Shown: positions 24,317 through 63,941 of the stretch, piece by piece | How positions within the stretch are numbered: position 1 is the first letter of the stretch | Layout of the letters: each line of letters begins with the position of its first letter | Source of the DNA: a virus | Virus record (IMG/VR): IMGVR_UViG_3300019889_000011 | Direction: 5' to 3' (one strand) | DNA length: 64,000 nt | Translations under genes and position numbers: made by a program | The notes under the pieces: generated by a model | The model's input: the letters and a program-made list of their open reading frames with translations, nothing else | What the model was told of the DNA's origin: nothing | Database searches by the model: none

Positions 24317-24388
24317 GTCAGGAACCCGGCGCGCCCACGGCCAACAGCGGCAATCCGTCAGGAACATGTCAGGAACCGCGTCAGGAAC
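24317..24388 (+). repeat. Arm-type direct repeats (4 x GTCAGGAAC), left of att core
   Basis: Copies at 24317, 24357, 24368 and 24380; the last three are spaced 11-12 bp apart. Confidence 0.55.
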
Positions 24389-24560
24389 CGGAAAAGAATT
24401 TATTGAATTTATGGACGCATAAGAAGCATTTTACTGGGCCAAAACGTGACGACGCGGAGCGTGTAAATCCTAACGTTTCAAAGAGTTGTGGCGTATCTCA
24501 TGGAAAAGAAAACACGTTAGCCTGTTTTTTGCTAAGTCTATGAAAACTCGTCGCAAGGTT

Positions 24561-24607
24561 GGCTACGAACCAGTAGGTCGGGTGTTCGAATCACTCCGGG
24601 CGCACCA
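24561..24607 (+). tRNA. 3' portion of tRNA-Arg(ACG): anticodon loop through CCA. This is the att core, with no 5' half present.
   Basis: GGCTACGAACC anticodon region (anticodon ACG), T-arm GGGTG-TTCGAAT-CACTC, acceptor 3' strand CGGGCGC, discriminator A, then CCA. Near-identical to the same segment of E. coli tRNA-Arg(ACG) as recalled from memory. No matching 5' acceptor strand (GCGCCCG) or D-arm is present upstream. Confidence 0.6.
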
Positions 24608-24677
24608 TACAAACCCCACAAAACACAATACTTAGAGGCTTCCGGCCCTTCCCCCAGAAAGGCCGAAAACCCCAAAT

Positions 24678-24746
24678 GTCAGGAACCGGTCAGCAACCGG
24701 GTTTCGGAAAAAGCAAGGTTCGCGGTAAGCAAACCGCGTCAGCAAC
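24678..24746 (+). repeat. Arm-type direct repeats (GTCAGGAAC, 2 x GTCAGCAAC), right of att core
   Basis: Copies at 24678, 24689 and 24738, in the same orientation as the left-arm copies. Confidence 0.5.
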
Positions 24747-26086: not shown

Positions 26087-26271
26087 GCTTCTATCCTTTC
26101 TAATGCTTCTTCAAAACTTTCCACATACTGAACGAAAAATCCGCTTCTGCCCTATGTCATATAAGTGACATTATGATAAGCAGTGGAAGCATAGCACGTA
26201 TAAGAAGCATTGGAGACATTGCAATCCTCCGTGCTCCCGTATTTAGGCCCCATGAAAGGAAGAGCTTTTCG

Positions 26272-26496
26272 ATGACCAGAAAGAAACCATCCACAGCAGT
26301 AGAAGCCCCGCCTGACGATGATCTTCTGCGCATGCGGGATGTGGCAGACATCCTCCATTGCAGCCTCGCGCATTGCTACAACCTCGCGAATAGTGGTCGG
26401 ATTCCAGCACTCCGCGAAGGAGGCATGATCCGCACACCACGCTCGCAACTCATGGCGTGGATCAAGAACAAATCTGTTGAGGTTCACGCAGCTTAG
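26272..26496 (+). CDS. xis: Excisionase / AlpA-like HTH DNA-binding protein
   Basis: LLRMRDVADILHCSLAHCYNLANSGRIPALREGGMIRTPRSQLMAWI is a typical excisionase-family HTH. It is divergent from int. Confidence 0.55.
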   Translation: MTRKKPSTAVEAPPDDDLLRMRDVADILHCSLAHCYNLANSGRIPALREGGMIRTPRSQLMAWIKNKSVEVHAA

Positions 26497-49160: not shown

Positions 49161-49541
49161 ATGACCACCAAGCAGACCAAAGTCGCCACCGCCGCCAAGA
49201 AGTCCACCACCAAGAAGGCCACCACGAAGAACACGCCCAGCAAGACTGCTGCGGCCAAGCCCAAGGCCACGAAACCGGCCAGCGTTCGCGCACAGTCGCC
49301 CACCACGCCGCCCAAGGCAGCAACGGAGGGGAAACCTACCACCCCGCGCAAGGACGGCACCAAGGCTAAAGTCTTGGCGATGATCAGCCAGAAGGGTGGA
49401 GCCACCCTGCCGAAGATCATGGAAGCCACCGGCTGGCAGGCTCACAGCGTCCGTGGCCTGATGGCGACGCTGGGCAAGACGATGAAGATCGAGAGCCTGA
49501 AGAACGAGGCTGGCCAGCGCACGTATATTCATCACGCGTAG
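49161..49541 (+). CDS. Histone H1-like low-complexity protein with DUF3489-like C-terminal domain
   Basis: SD AGGAGG. K/T/A-rich N-terminus (KKSTTKKATTKNTPSKTAAAKPKATKPA), then KVLAMISQKGGATLPKIMEATGWQAHSVRGLMATLGK. Its orientation is opposite to the flanking genes. Confidence 0.5.
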   Translation: MTTKQTKVATAAKKSTTKKATTKNTPSKTAAAKPKATKPASVRAQSPTTPPKAATEGKPTTPRKDGTKAKVLAMISQKGGATLPKIMEATGWQAHSVRGLMATLGKTMKIESLKNEAGQRTYIHHA

Positions 49542-50803
49542 GTTCCAGTCTGTTCGGCAGAGGCGGCAGAGATGCCGCCTTCGCTCGTTCTGGCTGCTTT
49601 CAATTCCTCGAACGTCCTGCCGTCGCCGTCGAGCGTGGCCTGCTTGCCGGTGAAGGTCTGCCAGCGCGTGATGATGACGTCGCAGTAAGCCGGATCAATC
49701 TCCGTGGTACGGCATAGCCGCCCTTCCATCTCGCAGGCAATCAGCGTGGTTCCGGACCCGCCGAACGGGTCGAGGACCACGTCGCCGCCCTTGCTGCTGT
49801 TCGCAATTGGGTATGCCACCAGCGCAACTGGCTTCATCGTCGGGTGCTCTTGGCTTTGCGACGGTCGGTCGAAGTGCCAGAGCGTCGTCTGCTTCCGGTC
49901 CGAGTACCAGCGATGGGCTGCTGTCGCCTTCCAGCCGTACAACACAGGCTCGTGTTGCCACTGGTAGTCCGAACGTCCGAACACCATGGTCTGCTTCGCC
50001 CAGACGCAACACGCGGCCAGATAGAAGCCAGCCTCAAGGTACGCTTTGCGGAAGTTGAGACCCTCGGTATCGGCGTGGAAGATGTAGATGGATGCGCCGT
50101 CGCCCATCGCGTTGAACATGCACCGATAGGCGTTCAGCAGGAAGCCGTAGAAGTCGAGATCGTCTTTCTTGTCGTTCTCGATCTTCAGCGCCTTCTTTGT
50201 CTTGCCGGTGTAGTCGATGTTGTATGGCGGGTCCGTCACCACCAGCGCAGCCGAGCGTCCGTCCATCAGCCGGTCGACATCAGCCTGCTTCGTGGAATCG
50301 CCGCATAGCAGTCGGTGGTTGCCGAGCACCCAGAGGTCTCCAGCCTGCGTGACCGGCGTCGCGGGCACCGCTGGAACTTCGTCCGCGTCCGTGAGGCTGT
50401 CCGTAGACTTCGCCATCAACTCCGCAAGTTCGCTCTCGTCGAATCCGGTCAGGCTCATGTCCATGTCGAGCGCTCTCAGATCCAGCAGCTCCGCGCCGAG
50501 CAGAGCGGAATCCCAATCGGTCTCGTCGTGGCTTCGGTTATCCATGAGCCGGTATGCGCGAACCTGTGTCGGGTTGAGGTCGGTGGCGACGTGAACCGGC
50601 ACCGTCTCCGCGCCCATCCTCTTCGCTGCCAGCAGCCGCGCGTGACCGACGATGATAACGCCTTCGGTATCAACGACGATGGGTTGCCGCCAGCCGAACT
50701 CGCGAATGCTCGCAGCTACCTTGTCGACGGCGGCGTCGCTGATCTTTCGAGCGTTTTGCGGATACGGCGTGGGGCGGCCAATCGGCCAGGATTCAATGTT
50801 CAT
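49532..50803 (-). CDS. ParB-like nuclease domain fused to N6/N4 DNA methyltransferase
   Basis: N-terminal ParB-like region (QPIVVDTEGVIIVGHARLLAA), a central TDPPY motif, and a C-terminal AdoMet site VLDPFGGSGTT. Confidence 0.8.
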   Translation of the reverse strand: MNIESWPIGRPTPYPQNARKISDAAVDKVAASIREFGWRQPIVVDTEGVIIVGHARLLAAKRMGAETVPVHVATDLNPTQVRAYRLMDNRSHDETDWDSALLGAELLDLRALDMDMSLTGFDESELAELMAKSTDSLTDADEVPAVPATPVTQAGDLWVLGNHRLLCGDSTKQADVDRLMDGRSAALVVTDPPYNIDYTGKTKKALKIENDKKDDLDFYGFLLNAYRCMFNAMGDGASIYIFHADTEGLNFRKAYLEAGFYLAACCVWAKQTMVFGRSDYQWQHEPVLYGWKATAAHRWYSDRKQTTLWHFDRPSQSQEHPTMKPVALVAYPIANSSKGGDVVLDPFGGSGTTLIACEMEGRLCRTTEIDPAYCDVIITRWQTFTGKQATLDGDGRTFEELKAARTSEGGISAASAEQTGTYA

Positions 50804-53062: not shown

Positions 53063-53470
53063 TTATTTGCCGTCCGTTGGTACGGGTGCGTCGCCTTGTC
53101 GGCGGTCCGTTGTCGCTTGCCTGCGGTCCTGCGTTGCTACACGCCTGTCCAGCATTCCTTGCAGATAACCGGCTGGCGGCGGTGCGATTAGCGCGCGATA
53201 CGCTGTGGTCTGGAACGCCCACTGCTCCACCCCACGCACAAGCGCGTGGTAGATGTTGACTGAAGTGAGGCCGCTGATGGTGAGCGTGCCCTGGCTCCAC
53301 GTCACAAAGATGCCGACGCCTGTCAGGAACGCGATGATGGCAGAAACCCAATAGTTGAGCGTCTCGGTCTCGACAGTAAGCCAAGGGAAGAATCGGCTCT
53401 TTTTCAGCCATTGCATGACGAAGCTGACGAGGATCGCCGTTGTCGCTTGTGCGCCTAGTTCGCTGCTCAT
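53063..53470 (-). CDS. Holin candidate
   Basis: Two to three TM helices (TTAILVSFVMQWL, WVSAIIAFLTGVGIFVTW) and a charged C-terminus, directly upstream of the lysozyme. Confidence 0.45.
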   Translation of the reverse strand: MSSELGAQATTAILVSFVMQWLKKSRFFPWLTVETETLNYWVSAIIAFLTGVGIFVTWSQGTLTISGLTSVNIYHALVRGVEQWAFQTTAYRALIAPPPAGYLQGMLDRRVATQDRRQATTDRRQGDAPVPTDGK

Positions 53471-57744: not shown

Positions 57745-58140
57745 TTGTTTGACCGCGTGAATGCAATGAACCTCGGCCTCGTGAAGTATGACGCAATGAT
57801 CCTCGCTATCGAAGCGTGCGAACGCATCGATGAAGTGAAAAGCATCATCGATAAGGCGCGTGCCCTCGAGGTCTATGCTGCGCAGGCCATGAATACGGAG
57901 GCAGAAGCCAAGGCGGCGCGTATACGTATCCGTGCCGAGCGGAAGACGGGTGAGTTGATTGCAGAGGGACAGCGCAGCGGTCAAATGCAAACTGCTGGAG
58001 ATAACGCTGGCGCACATCGAGGAAAACAAAGGTCGTCGTGTGGCACGACTACCTTACGCGACTTCGGTATATCACGCGACCAATCCTCGCAGTGGCAGAA
58101 GCTCGCAGAGATACCGAAGGACGATGGCAGGCAAGCCAGA
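57745..58140 (+). pseudogene. Truncated 5' fragment of the methyltransferase gene (copy of the gene running off the window start)
   Basis: 57956-58128 is near-identical to 1-172 (perfect for about 127 nt), then diverges into unrelated sequence. The downstream MT-A70 domain is absent. Confidence 0.5.
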
Positions 58141-58144
58141 GAGG

Positions 58145-58894
58145 TCAGCCGACGACGAGGGACCGCAACTCCTTCGAGAATTGTTGGAGTGCCTTCAGGT
58201 CCTCGGCGTCCTTCATCGCCTTTACGCTGCCTTCACAGTTGGCATCGACGCAATCGGGATTCGAGCAGTTCGCGCAATCGCCGTCGGTGCACTCGGGACA
58301 ATCGCACTCGCACAGCGCGTCCTTTTTGAGCAGAGCTTTCAAGCTGAGGTCGATGGCGCGGAGCTGGTCGAGATCGGCGGCGGTCACTTCCCCAGGTCGA
58401 AAGGTTCGGAGGACGTTTTCAATCTGGCCAAGTGTCTTTACCGTGGTGACGACGGCCCCCGGATTACAAGGCACGGCGCAAAGTGAGATCTCATGCAAGC
58501 GAACTTCCTTCAGTGTTCGAGTGCCGTCATCGTTGTATGAGATTTTGCCTTCGCCGTGTGGCAACGTGTAGCCGATGGATAACCCCCGAACGATTCCAGC
58601 TTTCATAAAAGCGTGCGCACGTTTAGCCCCTGCATCTTCCATGAGCAACGTCCCTTTGCAGACAAGGCCCTCGGTCGAGTCGGAGAGAAAAACGCTTCCG
58701 AGTGGTTCCAGTTGTGAGTGACACCAGAGCAAGGGAAGGCCCTTCCCCTGCATCTGAATCGCCTGTTTATATGCGCCCGGTGCGATGATGTCGCCCACGA
58801 GGTCAGCGGGTGCACCGTACGTCGAAGCCAGTCCGGTGAAGGTGCCCGAATCATCGAGCACCTTCACCTTCAGAGAGAAGTCACGCGTCTGCAT
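58145..58894 (-). CDS. Prohead protease (HK97 family), second copy, with Cys-rich C-terminus
   Basis: GLSIGY...LHEISLCAVPCNPGA protease motifs. C-terminal CECDCPECTDGDCANCSNPDCVDANC. Confidence 0.65.
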   Translation of the reverse strand: MQTRDFSLKVKVLDDSGTFTGLASTYGAPADLVGDIIAPGAYKQAIQMQGKGLPLLWCHSQLEPLGSVFLSDSTEGLVCKGTLLMEDAGAKRAHAFMKAGIVRGLSIGYTLPHGEGKISYNDDGTRTLKEVRLHEISLCAVPCNPGAVVTTVKTLGQIENVLRTFRPGEVTAADLDQLRAIDLSLKALLKKDALCECDCPECTDGDCANCSNPDCVDANCEGSVKAMKDAEDLKALQQFSKELRSLVVG

Positions 58895-58906
58895 TGGTTC
58901 CCCCGT

Positions 58907-60091
58907 TTACGCTGGCGACGATGTGAAGGTGCCTGTGAGGAACGACGCGGCTCTTTTGACCACCAAACACATGCGTTTCTCTGCGCGGCACGCTACGAGG
59001 TTCTTCGTAAAGTAATCTGCGTGCTCGGTGCTCACTTCATATTGAATTTCCATTCTGTCGCGAATCTCTGCCGCTGCCGGGTTGCCGCTGCCGACTAGAA
59101 AAGTTCCGGCGCTGATGCTGGTCGTCGGAATAACGAGCAGGTCGAACAGCATCGCGTTGGCCGTGGTCTGTGGGTCTCCGATCAAAAAACGGCCCAAGGT
59201 ATCCTTCGTCAACCGGATGTTCCACCAGTCGTTCGGGTTCAACACGATGAAGCTGGGAGTTAGTTCCTTGGCCGAGGTCAATTGCTGGACAGCACGACCG
59301 ACGATATCGATGCGGCTATAGCTGCCGGAACCTAGCAGCGACGGGTTGAATGGAGTGGCCTGCCCGAGGATGCCGTGGAGATTTTCTCCGGTGTTATCGC
59401 CGCCGAGAATTTGCTGTTCTTCGGCAAGATTTACATAAAACGTGAGGCTGGTTTCGAGGAAACTGGCGAGTTCCTCGAAGTCATCAAGAATATTTTTAGA
59501 GGCCGGAATCCAAGTCGCAATCGTCTTCACCCGCTCACTCGCAGAGGTGAACGCGAGCGCGTTCTCTGCCTTCGCCGCACCTTCCACTTGTGGCGATGCA
59601 ATCCCCAGAGGCGTACTCACGCGCACAAAATCGACCATGCCCATTGAGGTCGGTCGAGCTGTCAGCGCATCGCGCACGGTCAACTCTTGTCGAGGTTCGG
59701 CGGTGATGCCCCGGTCGCGATCGATCGGCAATACTCCGGTGGTCTGCGAGCCTTGCCCGGTCGACGTGATGACCGCTTTGCGCTGGAGGATCTGTTCGGC
59801 ATCCTTGCCGCTGAGCGTGATGATGGCGCTGCCGCGGCGGTCGTGAAGGAGACGCTGGAAGCCTTCGTGAGTCTTCAAATGTTCGACGAATCCAGGCGTC
59901 ATCGAGACGTTGCCGAGGCGGTCGTGATTTTGCAAATCCAAAGAATCGACCTGCGTTTGAATCGCCTTCTGCTGCGAAACGAGCGATTCGACGGACGATT
60001 TGATGCCGTCGAGGACTTCGACCACTGCTTTAGTTTCCATGGGGAGACAACTCCGTTGAACGGCTGGGATTTCGTCGGTGCTGGTCGGCAA
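58907..60091 (-). CDS. Major capsid protein, HK97 fold, second (paralogous) copy
   Basis: Collinear with 43227-44426 (shared blocks GDNTGENL, LNPNDWWNIR, TKDTLGR, AAAEIRDRME, EHADYFTKNLVA). Confidence 0.8.
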   Translation of the reverse strand: MPTSTDEIPAVQRSCLPMETKAVVEVLDGIKSSVESLVSQQKAIQTQVDSLDLQNHDRLGNVSMTPGFVEHLKTHEGFQRLLHDRRGSAIITLSGKDAEQILQRKAVITSTGQGSQTTGVLPIDRDRGITAEPRQELTVRDALTARPTSMGMVDFVRVSTPLGIASPQVEGAAKAENALAFTSASERVKTIATWIPASKNILDDFEELASFLETSLTFYVNLAEEQQILGGDNTGENLHGILGQATPFNPSLLGSGSYSRIDIVGRAVQQLTSAKELTPSFIVLNPNDWWNIRLTKDTLGRFLIGDPQTTANAMLFDLLVIPTTSISAGTFLVGSGNPAAAEIRDRMEIQYEVSTEHADYFTKNLVACRAEKRMCLVVKRAASFLTGTFTSSPA

Positions 60092-60093
60092 CC

Positions 60094-60315
60094 TTACGAG
60101 TCGAGCGAGTCAACTACGCCATGCGAACCCGGTGCGGGGTGCCTATGCCGTGTACTGGCTGTAGGCGACGCTGGAGTGTCATCTCGATTATCACTCATAT
60201 CGGCTTCCGGTGATTGCATGATGGCGTCGATTTTGACGATGGCCTGAACATCGACGCCGAGAGCGGCGGCCCGTCGCTTCAGTCGATTCCATCGCAGGAT
60301 GCGAACGCGATTCAT
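60094..60315 (-). CDS. Small hypothetical protein
   Basis: ORF only. Confidence 0.3.
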   Translation of the reverse strand: MNRVRILRWNRLKRRAAALGVDVQAIVKIDAIMQSPEADMSDNRDDTPASPTASTRHRHPAPGSHGVVDSLDS

Positions 60316-60554
60316 TGAACGATTCCCCCCGTCACCAGGCGAAGTTTCAAGTCTTCAATCTCCACCTGATGGCTCTCCATCAGCCGGGTCTGCAACGCGA
60401 CTTGCGTTTCGAGCTGGTCAATCCTTGCGGTCGCCTGTTCGTTCGCTACGACAAGCTGGTTGTGAGCAAGCTGCAGCGTCACAATTTCACGAATCACCTT
60501 GTCGAGGTCGTCATCGTTTTGCATGTTGCCTCCATTCTTTCGTTTCAAATTCAA
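60312..60554 (-). CDS. Small coiled-coil hypothetical protein
   Basis: ORF only. Confidence 0.3.
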   Translation of the reverse strand: MNLKRKNGGNMQNDDDLDKVIREIVTLQLAHNQLVVANEQATARIDQLETQVALQTRLMESHQVEIEDLKLRLVTGGIVQ

Positions 60555-60557
60555 ATT

Positions 60558-61058
60558 TCAATCGCCGCACAGCGCTCTCTCCAGCGGGTCGTCCATGCTG
60601 CCCGGAACGAAGGCACCCGTCGTCGTCGCGATCCGCGACCTTGAGGCAGGCGTCATGCCGAATTGCTGTAGCATCCGACTCACGATCTCGGCCTGCGCAT
60701 TGATGATTCCCAAGAGCGGTGACTGCATCAGGTAGCCGGTTTTCGTCTGCAACAAGAGCGTCGAGCGATTGCCTTTCGCCGATCTCACCATCAGGCTCTG
60801 AGCCTCAATCAAGGTTCCATACGCCTGACAAAGAATCGCCAGCGCTACCCCATCCGCTTCGCTCAGCACCCGCATCGAGAGCAGGAGTGGAACCAATCTT
60901 CTCCATTCCTTGCGAGCTATGGCGGTCAGGTGTTTCGGCATCTCTGGTGCTCCAATCAGTGGCGTCGGCTCGCGGTCATTCAACTTCTGGTGACCGCGAT
61001 TACCTTCGTAAATCCGCAGTGCAGTTGGTTTCGGTGGTGGTCCCGGCATGATATTCAC
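60558..61058 (-). CDS. terS: Terminase small subunit, P27 family, second copy
   Basis: MNIMPGPPPKPTALRIYEGNRGHQKLNDREP matches the P27 N-terminal signature. Confidence 0.7.
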   Translation of the reverse strand: MNIMPGPPPKPTALRIYEGNRGHQKLNDREPTPLIGAPEMPKHLTAIARKEWRRLVPLLLSMRVLSEADGVALAILCQAYGTLIEAQSLMVRSAKGNRSTLLLQTKTGYLMQSPLLGIINAQAEIVSRMLQQFGMTPASRSRIATTTGAFVPGSMDDPLERALCGD

Positions 61059-61079
61059 CTCAGCTACAGTCTGCGCCTA

Positions 61080-61090
61080 CCCCCCTCCCC
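61080..61090 (-). other. Conserved C-rich motif (cos/pac candidate), second copy
   Basis: CCCCCCTCCCC between HNH2 and TerS2. Confidence 0.35.
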
Positions 61091-61183
61091 TTATCCCTAG
61101 AAAATTCGCGGATAACGTGCACGTGTTCCGTAGAGCGATTGCTGTGGAGATCTAGACGGCCCTACACGTCATCCCTGCCTGTC

Positions 61184-61621
61184 TCATGCCTGCGGGAGCC
61201 GTGCGTTCAGTTCGCGCATCGTCTTGGCGCTGTGACACCGGCTGCATCGCGTCCGGTAGTTGTCGAGGTCGCGACGGAGGTCGGGCCGTTCCTCTACCGG
61301 CACGTCGTGGTCGCCGTGCAGATGCACATCTCCGCGTGTCCATCGTTCTTTCAACTCGGCAAGGATGACGCTGGTGGGTGGTTCATCGAGACCATAAGTT
61401 CTGGCATCGCGCACGACGTCCGGCTCGAAGCCGCAGTCGACGCAGCGCCATCCGTCGCGCTGAAAGCACTGAATGCGGAGCCGTTGATGAGTGGCGTCGT
61501 ATCCTTGCGCGTACGACGAGCCGCGCCGTTGACTCTGCTGCCGCTTGCATTCAGGGCAGCGCCCACCACCCTCGGTCAGCCTGCCACAGCCGTTCGAGCA
61601 GGAGCGCTTTGGAAGCCTCAT
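61184..61621 (-). CDS. HNH endonuclease (terminase-associated), second copy
   Basis: Same architecture and about half identity to 50923-51390 (CVDCGFEP, VVRDAR, YGLD, DNY.TRC..CHSAKTMRE). Confidence 0.7.
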   Translation of the reverse strand: MRLPKRSCSNGCGRLTEGGGRCPECKRQQSQRRGSSYAQGYDATHQRLRIQCFQRDGWRCVDCGFEPDVVRDARTYGLDEPPTSVILAELKERWTRGDVHLHGDHDVPVEERPDLRRDLDNYRTRCSRCHSAKTMRELNARLPQA

Positions 61622-61918
61622 ACGTTTCCTCCTTCGCAGTCATCGTTGATTCCCTTCGACCGCTCTCTACGATGGCCCGTAGTCGCGCGGAATGTCTCCT
61701 TCCTGCGTTCGCTACGATGCCTCTGGCGGGTCACTGTATCCACGTTGCACGCTCGCCGCGTCGCTGACGTCGGTACTCGGCGAACTTCCGTTCGAGTTCG
61801 TCGTTTGTGTACAACGCCCGGTAGTAGCTCCACGAGCGCATCAGCTCTGTTGCTTCACGTGACGGTAGCTTGGCGGCGGCATCTGCGACTCTTTGCTCAA
61901 TGGGGATGTGCGCTTTTT

Positions 61919-62278
61919 CTATTTGCATGCTTCCTCACTTTCATCGTCCTGTGCATTGGTCTTTTTAGCAGTACTGAGCATCGTTGTCGCATACTCGAAA
62001 GCCTGCGAGCGGTACGGTGCCCATGGAAGGATGCCCACCGAGTTCAGCATCTTCTCAATCGTGAACGGCGTGCCGCTTGCGACGGCAGTCTCTACGGCAC
62101 GCTCCACGAGCGCCTGCCAGAGCTTCTTTCGGCGGTCGTTACTCTGTGCGGTCTGTGCTTTCACTGCTGCATCATCTTCATCGAATGTAATCACGCAACA
62201 CCTCCGTGACGGATTGCGCCTGAAGCTGGTAGAGCAGACAGCCAGATGGCAAGCGCTGTACGCTGATCTGCCCTGCAC
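61919..62278 (-). CDS. Hypothetical protein (frame choice uncertain)
   Basis: Several overlapping ORFs here; this one has the most plausible composition. Confidence 0.25.
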   Translation of the reverse strand: MQGRSAYSACHLAVCSTSFRRNPSRRCCVITFDEDDAAVKAQTAQSNDRRKKLWQALVERAVETAVASGTPFTIEKMLNSVGILPWAPYRSQAFEYATTMLSTAKKTNAQDDESEEACK

Positions 62279-62495
62279 GGCGTCGCTGCTGTCTCTTCAT
62301 CGCTGCCTGCTTCGTTCTCTTCTCCTCGGCCAGCACCTCGGCCAGGTATGCAGGTGGGTAGTACTCGCGTGGGCTTTTCATATTTGAGGTTCCTCTCCTG
62401 TTGAACGGTGGATTCAGCTTTTAGAAACATCATCGCGATACGTCCCCAGAGCCGAAGGGCTGTGGGGCATGGAGTTACGGTTTGTTTTATTTCTT

Positions 62496-62568
62496 CCTTG
62501 ATAACCCTTGAGGATCATTGATAAATACCTTGAAAATACCCTTGATCCCGCATCGTCACCTTGATACC
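62496..62568. repeat. Iteron-like array of (C/A)(C/T)TTGA(T/A) repeats at helical-turn spacing
   Basis: CCTTGA/CATTGA copies at 62496, 62506, 62517, 62528, 62540 and 62559 in an AT-richer stretch just downstream of the 461-aa gene. Confidence 0.45.
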
Positions 62569-63941
62569 GCATCGCTGTTCCTATCCCGTTCAGCCAATTG
62601 GTCATAATCTTGTATCCATTCCGTCGCAACTTCCTCCATCTGCCGGAGCCAGCGCGCCGTCGCTTCGGTATGCGGACGGTACCGCAGGCGGTAAATATCC
62701 ACCATTTGCACTTGCGGCACAGTCTGCAAAACCGGGACCAGCACATTTTCATCCTCCGCCCCGTGATCGAGAATGATTTCGGCCAGCATTCGGCGAGCGG
62801 CGGCATTGGCCGCTACCGCAACGGCCCGCTCGAGCGGCTCGCCACCGCCATGCCACGCGATGCCAATGATGGGTTCGCTGCCTCTGTCCTCGTTCTCCAC
62901 AAGATGCGGGACGCGCTCGAGCAGGCCCATTTTGCTCAGAGTGTCAAACGCCTGCCAGAGACCGGTTTCCTTCGATTGATCAACCGATTGACGTTGCCAG
63001 AAGAATTCAGTGCATGCCTGACCGGGATAAACATAGGCACTGAGTAGATTGAAACCATAAACGAAACGGTTGCCGCAGTGGCCGTATTGTCTCCGTCGGT
63101 ATTGCACCTCCACTACCTTCCGACTTATACCTCCGTCATCCGCGAGGTTGTGCGCGTGGTACAGGTCGATGAGAAGCCGGAGAGCATCGAGGTTACGACA
63201 TTGACGCAGCCGCTTCACGGGTGATGGTTCACCATTATCCGTTCCGGTGACCAACGTATTTGGGAGCCAGATTAGATCGCTTCCAGCTTCGAGCCTCGGC
63301 GGTTCGACCTGAAAGGTGGTTCCGTTCTGCCAGAGCAATCCACGCATGACCAACTGTTTCGCCTCTTGCCTTGGGGATTTGGATCCCCTACCTTTTCGCC
63401 GGAAGGTGTTCATCACATATCGCTCGATATCGGAAATGCGCCGCCGGGCAGCATCGAGTACAGCATCGAAAGGTTGCAGTTCATAGACTGGTCGCCGCAT
63501 CGCCGTCGACTGAGCGACAGAGAGGAAGCCAGCTTCGATAAGTTGAGCAATCGCTGGCTTAGCCCGCTTCCAGGCGAGTCCGGTGTAATTCTGAATAGCA
63601 ACGGCGGACCACCTCGAAATGCGATTGCCTTTGCCGGTTCCTGCGCAGATGGTCAGATAGGCAACGGCCATGTTGATATCGTCCAATCCGCAGAGCAACT
63701 TCCATGTCCTTCGGTCTACGGTGAAGAAGCCAGCGCCGCGTGTTATCGTTGTTTCGCCCATGACATAAAACCTTGGCTCTACCGGCTTTGTCCCCGGCGG
63801 AGCTTTTCTATGCCTTGCATCGCGCTGCCGTAGCACGTTTGGCGCGCTCTTCCCGCTTGAGGGCTTTGGGGAGCGGCGCGGCAGGGATCGCAGGCGGGGT
63901 GGTGCTACGGGCTTCAACCCAGCTATCGACCTCGTGCTCAA
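62556..63941 (-). CDS. Large hypothetical protein (461 aa), replication-initiator candidate
   Basis: No motif I can name. Candidate status rests only on the adjacent iteron-like array. Confidence 0.35.
   Translation of the reverse strand: MSTRSIAGLKPVAPPRLRSLPRRSPKPSSGKSAPNVLRQRDARHRKAPPGTKPVEPRFYVMGETTITRGAGFFTVDRRTWKLLCGLDDINMAVAYLTICAGTGKGNRISRWSAVAIQNYTGLAWKRAKPAIAQLIEAGFLSVAQSTAMRRPVYELQPFDAVLDAARRRISDIERYVMNTFRRKGRGSKSPRQEAKQLVMRGLLWQNGTTFQVEPPRLEAGSDLIWLPNTLVTGTDNGEPSPVKRLRQCRNLDALRLLIDLYHAHNLADDGGISRKVVEVQYRRRQYGHCGNRFVYGFNLLSAYVYPGQACTEFFWQRQSVDQSKETGLWQAFDTLSKMGLLERVPHLVENEDRGSEPIIGIAWHGGGEPLERAVAVAANAAARRMLAEIILDHGAEDENVLVPVLQTVPQVQMVDIYRLRYRPHTEATARWLRQMEEVATEWIQDYDQLAERDRNSDAVSR

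Follow-up and report, generated by a model that had tools for sequence, protein, structure and literature searches.

A putative free attP with arm-type repeats on both sides of a tRNA-Arg(ACG) 3′ fragment in a temperate phage of likely Acidobacteriota hosts

Results and discussion

A tRNA-Arg(ACG) fragment flanked by two sets of arm-type repeats

The 64,000-nt stretch of viral DNA analysed here (the window) contains, at 24317-24746, what is very probably the complete attP of a temperate siphovirus-like phage of about 58 kb, referred to as phage A, in an unintegrated form, circular or concatemeric. The window would accordingly consist of a free phage genome and a second, small element (element B), not of bacterial chromosome. 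The coordinates of the features are collected in Table 1.

Table 1. Features of phage A, its attachment site, element B and four loci with homologous integrases. Positions are those of the window.
Feature	Position	Strand	Description
Phage A, full unit	1-57955	.	1-127 = 57956-58082
Replication/early genes	1-13 kb	+	
Methylase, exonuclease, SbcC-like protein, primosomal protein, DnaB helicase	0-7 kb	+	PHROG
attP-int-xis module	24.3-26.5 kb		
P arm (distal to int)	24317-24388	+	four repeats GTCAGGAAC at 24317, 24357, 24368, 24380
AT-rich spacer, P-arm sites to core	24389-24559	.	171 bp; 40.7% GC vs 57.6% for phage
Core	24560-24607	+	48 nt = tRNA-Arg(ACG), anticodon-stem position ~29 to CCA end
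P′ arm (int-proximal)	24678-24746	+	24678 = GTCAGGAAC; 24689 and 24738 = GTCAGCAAC
int terminator-like hairpin inside P′ arm	24717-24735	-	
Tyrosine integrase, 440 aa	24764-26086	-	phrog_1, PF00589, PF14659
Xis-like HTH_17 gene	26272-26496	+	divergent from int; phrog_66 (excisionase/regulator); PF12728, E = 1.3e-10
Tail-to-terminase genes	26.7-51.5 kb	-	
Tail fibre, tape measure, neck, major capsid, protease, portal, large terminase, ParB-methyltransferase, HNH	27-51.5 kb	-	PHROG
Element B (satellite-like)	58083-64000 and beyond		shared segment S = 57808-58082 (275 nt), in methylase gene
Element B S78 protease	58145-58894		
Element B major capsid protein	58907-60091		
L071 (P0002, 66%)			attP form; 47-nt tRNA-Arg(ACG) 3′ fragment, T-arm differs, start at same GGCTACG
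L072 (P0004, 59%)			integrated; complete tRNA-Val(TAC)
L070 (P0006, 56%)			integrated; complete tRNA-Arg(CCG); 832-kb contig beside glycine-cleavage genes
L073 (P0008, 55%; found in 43 blocks of collection)			attP form; tRNA-Val(TAC) 3′ fragment; TTGCTAGCAGA repeats both sides

The motif GTCAGSAAC occurs eight times in the 64 kb against 1.39 expected, a number reached in none of 100 shuffles. Seven of the eight copies, all of them perfect 9-mers on the + strand, lie within 430 bp on both sides of the tRNA 3′ fragment, four to the left and three to the right of a core to whose sequence they are unrelated. The eighth, a GTCAGGAAC at 53322-53330, is isolated and probably due to chance. The first-pass annotation had described the repeats as four and three, in one orientation and at helical-turn spacing; number and orientation stand, but the spacing is true of neighbouring sites only, which are 11 and 12 bp apart on the left and 11 bp on the right; the two outer sites lie at distances of 40 and 49 bp. 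The AT-rich spacer that separates the core from the P-arm sites is presumed to be bound and bent by accessory factors. At approximately 24502-24538 the spacer contains, on the - strand (the int-sense strand), a weak terminator-like hairpin followed by a T-tract (fold z = -2.3).

The sequence at 24561-24607 is exactly the 3′ 47 nt of the 77-nt tRNA-Arg(ACG). Identity reaches one base further left, to T24560, giving 48 nt that start in the anticodon stem, and in alignment to full tRNAs it stops at the CCA end or just past it. Anticodon stem halves TTGG and CCAG flank the 7-nt loop CTACGAA, a pattern compatible with inverted core-type sites around a 6-8-bp overlap region but one that any tRNA fragment would show. 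The 5′ half of the tRNA is absent from the window even when three mismatches are allowed, which agrees with the earlier claim that only the 3′ part of a tRNA-Arg is present. The search for an intact tRNA and for further core copies that had been proposed along with that claim was run on the 64 kb: ARAGORN predicted no tRNA, the 47-mer is unique in the window, and Rfam returned a partial tRNA match below threshold only (15 bits, E = 3.1). An Rfam match to mir-2796 looks spurious and was discarded.

The target gene and the likely host

A scan of one genome per species located the 47-mer in 39 places, at 37 of which the tRNA-Arg(ACG) gene is complete, so that plausible hosts hold a matching full-tRNA attB in the form of 37 genes with the identical 3′ 47 nt. 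By label, the hosts of the complete genes are Bryobacterales, Solibacter, Edaphobacter, Paludibaculum and Acidobacteriaceae; nearly all of the matches are labelled Acidobacteriota, and two of the 39 sit in MAGs labelled Arcobacter. Because the tRNA match is exact and the GC content of the phage (57.6%) is compatible, the host is likely a member of the Acidobacteriota.

The extent of the sequence shared with the host could be approached from a second side. Logan assemblies are built with k=31, and Logan contigs from three runs (L002, L003, L053 and L054) end at 24589 coming from either side, as would be expected if the samples also contained the 59 nt at 24560-24618 in a different context. The left limit derived from these contig ends, 24560, coincides with the start of the tRNA identity, arrived at independently. 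The contig ends thus suggest that a host attB is present in the Logan samples and shares the 11 nt TACAAACCCCA past the tRNA, with identity extending to 24618. None of the 39 tRNA loci of the genome scan is followed by TACAAACCCCA.

Other elements appear to use the same gene. In IMG/VR, L005 (2160-2400) and L006 (2040-2341) carry an unrelated integrase beside the same 47-nt core, starting from the same base, with GGTGGGGAC(TTTGGTGGGGACC) repeats flanking the core on both sides. They represent a second, independent attP for tRNA-Arg(ACG), and the identical core beside an unrelated integrase marks this tRNA gene as a shared target. In DBMU01000023.1 (Bryobacterales UBA690), a full tRNA-Arg(ACG) (L007, 7058-7134) is accompanied by a separate 47-nt fragment (L009, 2515-2561), and an Acidobacteriaceae MAG has a tRNA fragment only (L036, 6196-6242). 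The fragments in these two genomes look like displaced copies that mark integrated elements at tRNA-Arg(ACG).

Integrase and excisionase-like gene

An integrase gene and an excisionase-like gene adjoin the att site, as the first-pass annotation had stated; their products belong to the PF00589/PF14659 tyrosine integrases and to the HTH_17 family, respectively. The integrase matched PF00589 with E = 4.7e-19. Residues R218, K270, R350, H373 and Y383 are invariant in 30 homologues, at least 90% of which also have H347. In the AlphaFold model (pLDDT 86.8) the protein is composed of an N-terminal domain (residues ~10-58), a SAM-like core-binding domain and a catalytic domain. The N-terminal domain is modelled as three strands (10-14, 18-27 and 33-40) and a helix (43-58) with pLDDT of ~80-92. 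The N-terminal 80 aa matched no Pfam family, and a profile of this part found no meaningful match among PDB sequences, while five of 20 aligned homologues match PF14657 (Arm-DNA-bind_4) at their N-termini (best E = 4.6e-8). The top PDB matches in Foldseek were the integrase of Tn1549 and full-length lambda Int, and alignments with lambda Int spanned ~410 columns for the full-length protein versus ~340 for constructs that lack the N-domain. The N-terminal domain is a likely candidate for binding the arm sites.

The open reading frame of the Xis-like gene opens at 26173, and a start at 26272 is probable, as the resulting 74-aa form, beginning at M34, has the size of the homologue at locus L071, where a 74-aa HTH_17 gene lies upstream of int. 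By analogy, the divergently encoded HTH_17 protein is likely the excision directionality factor.

Phage records, IMG/VR and JGI contigs contained no close relative of the integrase. Megablast of the integrase/att region (23-27 kb) against 50,697 phage records gave no match. In IMG/VR, the integrase had nothing closer than a 26% relative, and the exact P-arm and P′-arm strings were absent. In JGI metagenomes, relatives did not exceed 32% identity, with the exception of a 30-residue fragment at 57%. A large protein collection yielded integrase homologues at 45-66% identity.

Conserved geometry at homologous loci

Four of the loci with homologous integrases (L070 to L073, Table 1) were compared with the window. 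In L070 and L072, the full tRNA gene lies 145-169 nt past the int stop on the opposite strand, which is the same arrangement as that of the fragment in the window; the tRNA is followed by CGTTGCTTT(C) repeats and then by int, and there are no such repeats on the far side of the tRNA. The repeats thus occur on the int side alone, in line with the earlier statement that a prophage junction keeps the arm sites of one side. L071 and L073, which are in attP form, have repeats on both sides of the core, and L071 contains no full tRNA and has its own AATCACTA-like repeats on either side of the fragment.

The distances between repeats and core are kept within a few nt at the five loci, even though motifs and target tRNAs differ. 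Measured from the CCA end, the int-proximal sites in the window end at 70, 81 and 130 nt, compared with 71, 82 and 125 nt in L072, 71 and 82 nt in L070, and 68 and 80 nt in L073; over all five loci the P′ sites end at 68-72, 80-82 and, for the distal one, 125-130 nt. On the opposite side, measured from the anticodon-side end of the core, the sites in the window start at 172, 184, 195 and 235 nt, and those of L071 and L073 at 173, 187 and 230 nt and at 163, 175 and 196 nt, respectively, so that the starts fall into the ranges 163-173, 175-187, 195-196 and 230-235 nt. Fixed spacing combined with diverged motifs and different tRNAs is what arm sites co-evolving with their integrase would be expected to show.

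This conservation bears on whether the att site could be a relic, that is, whether phage A is episomal or virulent and its int/attP module decayed and non-functional. No clear repressor was identified in phage A, and no integrated copy of phage A was found in the collections searched (IMG/VR and JGI metagenomes), as would be expected of a relic. However, the integrase is full-length with all catalytic residues invariant, the seven clustered repeats are without a mismatch, the core is identical to a living tRNA gene at 48 of 48 positions, and the geometry is the same as in integrated relatives. Decay of the module is therefore highly improbable.

Two further elements are shared among the attP-form loci. 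The window, L071 and L073 all have a P-arm hairpin with a T-tract approximately 20-45 nt past the core on the int-sense strand; it is strong in L073 (6386-6415) and L071 (6300-6330), and its homologue at 24502-24538 in the window is degenerate. This hairpin may be a retroregulator resembling lambda sib, which integration disconnects from int. The 15-20 nt on the 3′ side of CCA are also alike in the window (24608-24625), L071 and L073 (TACAAACCCCACAAAACA, TCCAAACACATCAAAACAA and TTCTAACCCTCTCAAAACAA, respectively) despite different target tRNAs, and may be a conserved candidate protein-binding site in the proximal P′ arm.

An unintegrated phage genome

PHROG annotation of phage A gave a complete tailed-phage gene set with structural and replication modules. 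Past the identical segment shared by the start of the window and the end of the phage A unit (Table 1), similarity has faded by 58119. In two other assemblies (L046 from ERZ27267804 and L048 from SRR7026477), the sequence of window 51.5-57.95 kb runs directly into that of window 1-9.5 kb. The terminal identity and these joins together give a closed phage A map of 57,955 bp. A MEGAHIT contig in ENA, k141_920992, begins 14 nt ahead of window position 1 and, at 57,962 bp, exceeds the cycle by 7 nt; its length presumably reflects a cut of the k=141 graph at segment S, shared between phage A and element B. Contigs L075 and L076, which stop exactly at window 57942, and the far end of L075, which comes back at window 57948, support such a cut. 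Two other explanations of the terminal identity were considered and rejected. The segments 1-164 and 57956-58119 do not qualify as prophage end repeats (attL/attR), being inside a coding gene and read through from the end of phage A to its start in other assemblies; and the window is not two concatenated contigs, because the repeat spacing of 57,955 differs from the 57,962 of the MEGAHIT contig.

An independent k=141 assembly (L001) contains the P-core-P′ junction with 100% identity, and the junction is crossed in the window's own source as well; the passage of the 57,962-bp contig across att is deduced from its length, the sequence read being its first 12.6 kb. As the core (48-59 nt) is shorter than k=141, the path from P through the core to P′ needs real reads spanning both arms, and the need for such reads rules out that attL and attR were joined by the assembler. 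A single integrated phage whose two ends were falsely connected through the shared core is accordingly extremely improbable. Elsewhere, the source contig has one doubtful join, made through the 275-nt segment S, so repeat-mediated joins do occur in this data set; nevertheless, the core falls short of the 141-nt k-mers of the ENA assemblies, the window shares the identical junction with two or more independent assemblies, and L071 and L073, which come from unrelated samples, have the same two-armed layout.

The first-pass annotation had left open whether the site marks a junction of tandem prophages or an unintegrated or excised phage genome. Two head-to-tail copies of a phage, or two related phages, in one tRNA-Arg gene would produce a hybrid attR/attL that mimics attP, with arms flanking both sides of the core, and tandem copies would also be compatible with a cyclic assembly graph. 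From a closed assembly map alone, a tandem array cannot be told apart from a free circle or concatemer. In addition, the Logan k=31 contigs break in the core, so the core sequence appears to have another context in the samples. Against a tandem junction, there is no second core, full tRNA or host gene in the 64 kb, where, within the limit set by the length of the window, one core and one integrase of this type are found. Going rightward from att, phage A gives way at 58,083 to a different element, and 128-24,316 is not repeated. In a tandem array, attL and attR would match attP in abundance and would break k=141 contigs at the core, whereas these contigs are unbranched at att. When the integrase and the 180-aa gene across att were looked up, only contigs in attP form or contigs ending in the core were returned, and no contig was found with this integrase beside a full tRNA. 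Tandem prophages are thus very unlikely. The absence of a second core copy, which had been named as a finding that would refute the att reading, cannot refute a free phage, since a single core is all that the genome of a free phage contains.

Taken together, the closed 57,955-bp map, the k=141 contig that crosses attP, and the absence from the window of a second core, a full tRNA and host genes favour a free genome, whether circular, concatemeric or virion-derived, and agree with the second of the two earlier options. The window's source contig passes from phage A into a different element and is not a clean single-genome contig (see below).

Other genes noticed in phage A include an MT-A70 methylase at the start of the window, a 105-aa protein at 10761-11078 (+) with a precomputed Pfam match to Ribosomal_S10, a C2H2 zinc-finger protein at 16107-16754 (+), and a ParB-fused DNA methyltransferase at 49532-50803 (-).

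Proposed mechanism and comparison with known systems

By analogy with heterobivalent integrases, the small N-terminal domain of the 440-aa integrase would bind the seven GTCAGSAAC arm-type sites, and the core-binding and catalytic domains would bind core-type sites around the anticodon stem-loop. Accessory proteins would bend the 171-bp spacer, allowing an intasome to assemble, and this intasome would recombine with attB, the tRNA-Arg(ACG) gene of the Acidobacteriota host. Strand exchange would most probably take place at or near the anticodon loop, at the left edge of identity, and the 48-nt copy of the phage would restore the 3′ part of the tRNA. The resulting prophage would have the order tRNA (full)-P′-int-xis-tail...head...early genes-P-48-nt fragment-host, and the HTH_17 protein would direct excision. 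In this scheme we infer the pairing of protein and sites, the position of the crossover and the activity of the module.

The Int/attP system of lambda has an attP of the structure P-O-P′, with arm-type sites P1, P2 and P′1-P′3, plus Xis and IHF; its attP spans ~240 bp, and the 15-bp core lies between gal and bio. The system of phage A resembles it in the small additional domain (predicted here) at the N-terminus of the tyrosine integrase, in arm-type repeats on both sides of the core, three of them in the int-proximal arm, in int abutting P′, in the adjacent small excisionase-like gene and in the AT-rich, bendable arm. The P-arm hairpin has the position of lambda sib/tI, and integration would part it from int. 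Unlike lambda, phage A has a tRNA gene as target with 48-nt identity, an attP of ~430 bp, four P-arm sites, seven co-oriented sites and an Xis-like protein that is of the HTH_17 type and not lambda Xis; sequence identity to lambda Int is 16-18% only. Mycobacteriophage L5 targets a tRNA-Gly gene and has many arm-type sites in both arms. It shares with phage A a large attP, clustered arm sites at a spacing of ~10-12 bp and a core that overlaps the 3′ end of a tRNA, but belongs to another host phylum and uses another tRNA.

In structure, the core-binding and catalytic domains of the integrase are closest to the integrases of Tn1549 and Tn916 (best Foldseek matches 6en2, 6emy and 6emz; E ~1e-12, TMt 0.76-0.81), and PF14657, which the N-termini of some homologues match, is the AP2-like arm-binding family of the Tn1549/Tn916 type. 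However, Tn1549 and Tn916 are conjugative transposons with relaxed target choice, whereas the element here is a tailed phage with a specific tRNA gene as its target.

The layout corresponds to that of islands and prophages that enter tRNA genes by way of an anticodon-centred attP (the sublocation classes of Williams 2002; class A of Islander), in which the element brings along the tRNA sequence from the anticodon stem-loop to the 3′ end and the gene is regenerated; as in those islands, the integrase of the integrated relatives adjoins the regenerated tRNA. An anticodon-centred attP with a 3′ tDNA fragment is the commonest class of island, and Islander lists 3760 islands with 3′ fragments and 2083 with anticodon-centred sites (PMC4383910). 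There is no difference of substance from these islands; what is seen here is the free attP form, in a host phylum little studied for phage integration. The mechanism, with a two-armed attP and the anticodon region of a tRNA gene, is textbook; the phage and the integrase clade are new.

Very few phages have been characterised for the Acidobacteriota, a group found in soil (PMC11924767), and the analysis defines the att site, the integrase and the likely host phylum of an uncultivated temperate phage of this group. Within a small clade of integrases (55-66% identity), the geometry of the arm sites is fixed while arm motifs and target tRNAs (Arg-ACG, Arg-CCG or Val-TAC) change. Int/attP pairs of this kind could be used for integration in bacteria whose genetic manipulation is difficult.

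Element B

From window position 57,942 to 64,000, the sequence is 100% identical to a 9,613-bp NCBI MAG contig (L075, 1-9613), which also closes on S to give a cycle of 9,606 bp. The genes of element B encode a P4-type integrase (Arm-DNA-bind_3), AlpA, a 401-aa protein, an HNH protein, TerS, a major capsid protein and an S78 protease, and the element is without genes for a large terminase (TerL), portal or tail. From this gene content, element B appears to be a separate 9.6-kb element resembling a phage satellite. It shares short patches with phage A at 65-97% identity in addition to S.

The join between phage A and element B may be a figure-8 walk by the assembler or a real phage::satellite cointegrate. 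Phage A was found without element B in at least two assemblies. The two cycles sum to 57,955 + 9,606 = 67,561 bp, and the longest contig bearing the integrase measures 67,536 bp; by this arithmetic, the source of the window is probably a figure-8 walk that takes in both cycles. For the ORF at 62556-63941, the 401-aa form was matched and the 461-aa form was not, and no contig longer than 10 kb carries the 401-aa form. That the window represents a real single molecule, in which the satellite recombined into an unintegrated phage A via S in the methylase gene, is unlikely; if true, this would be a case from the Acidobacteriota of a satellite embedded in its helper, a phage whose own attP is intact. 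At 195-204 of L075, element B contains GGTCAGCAACC, which is diverged in phage A and lies just upstream of the gene at 57745; this occurrence is probably due to chance.
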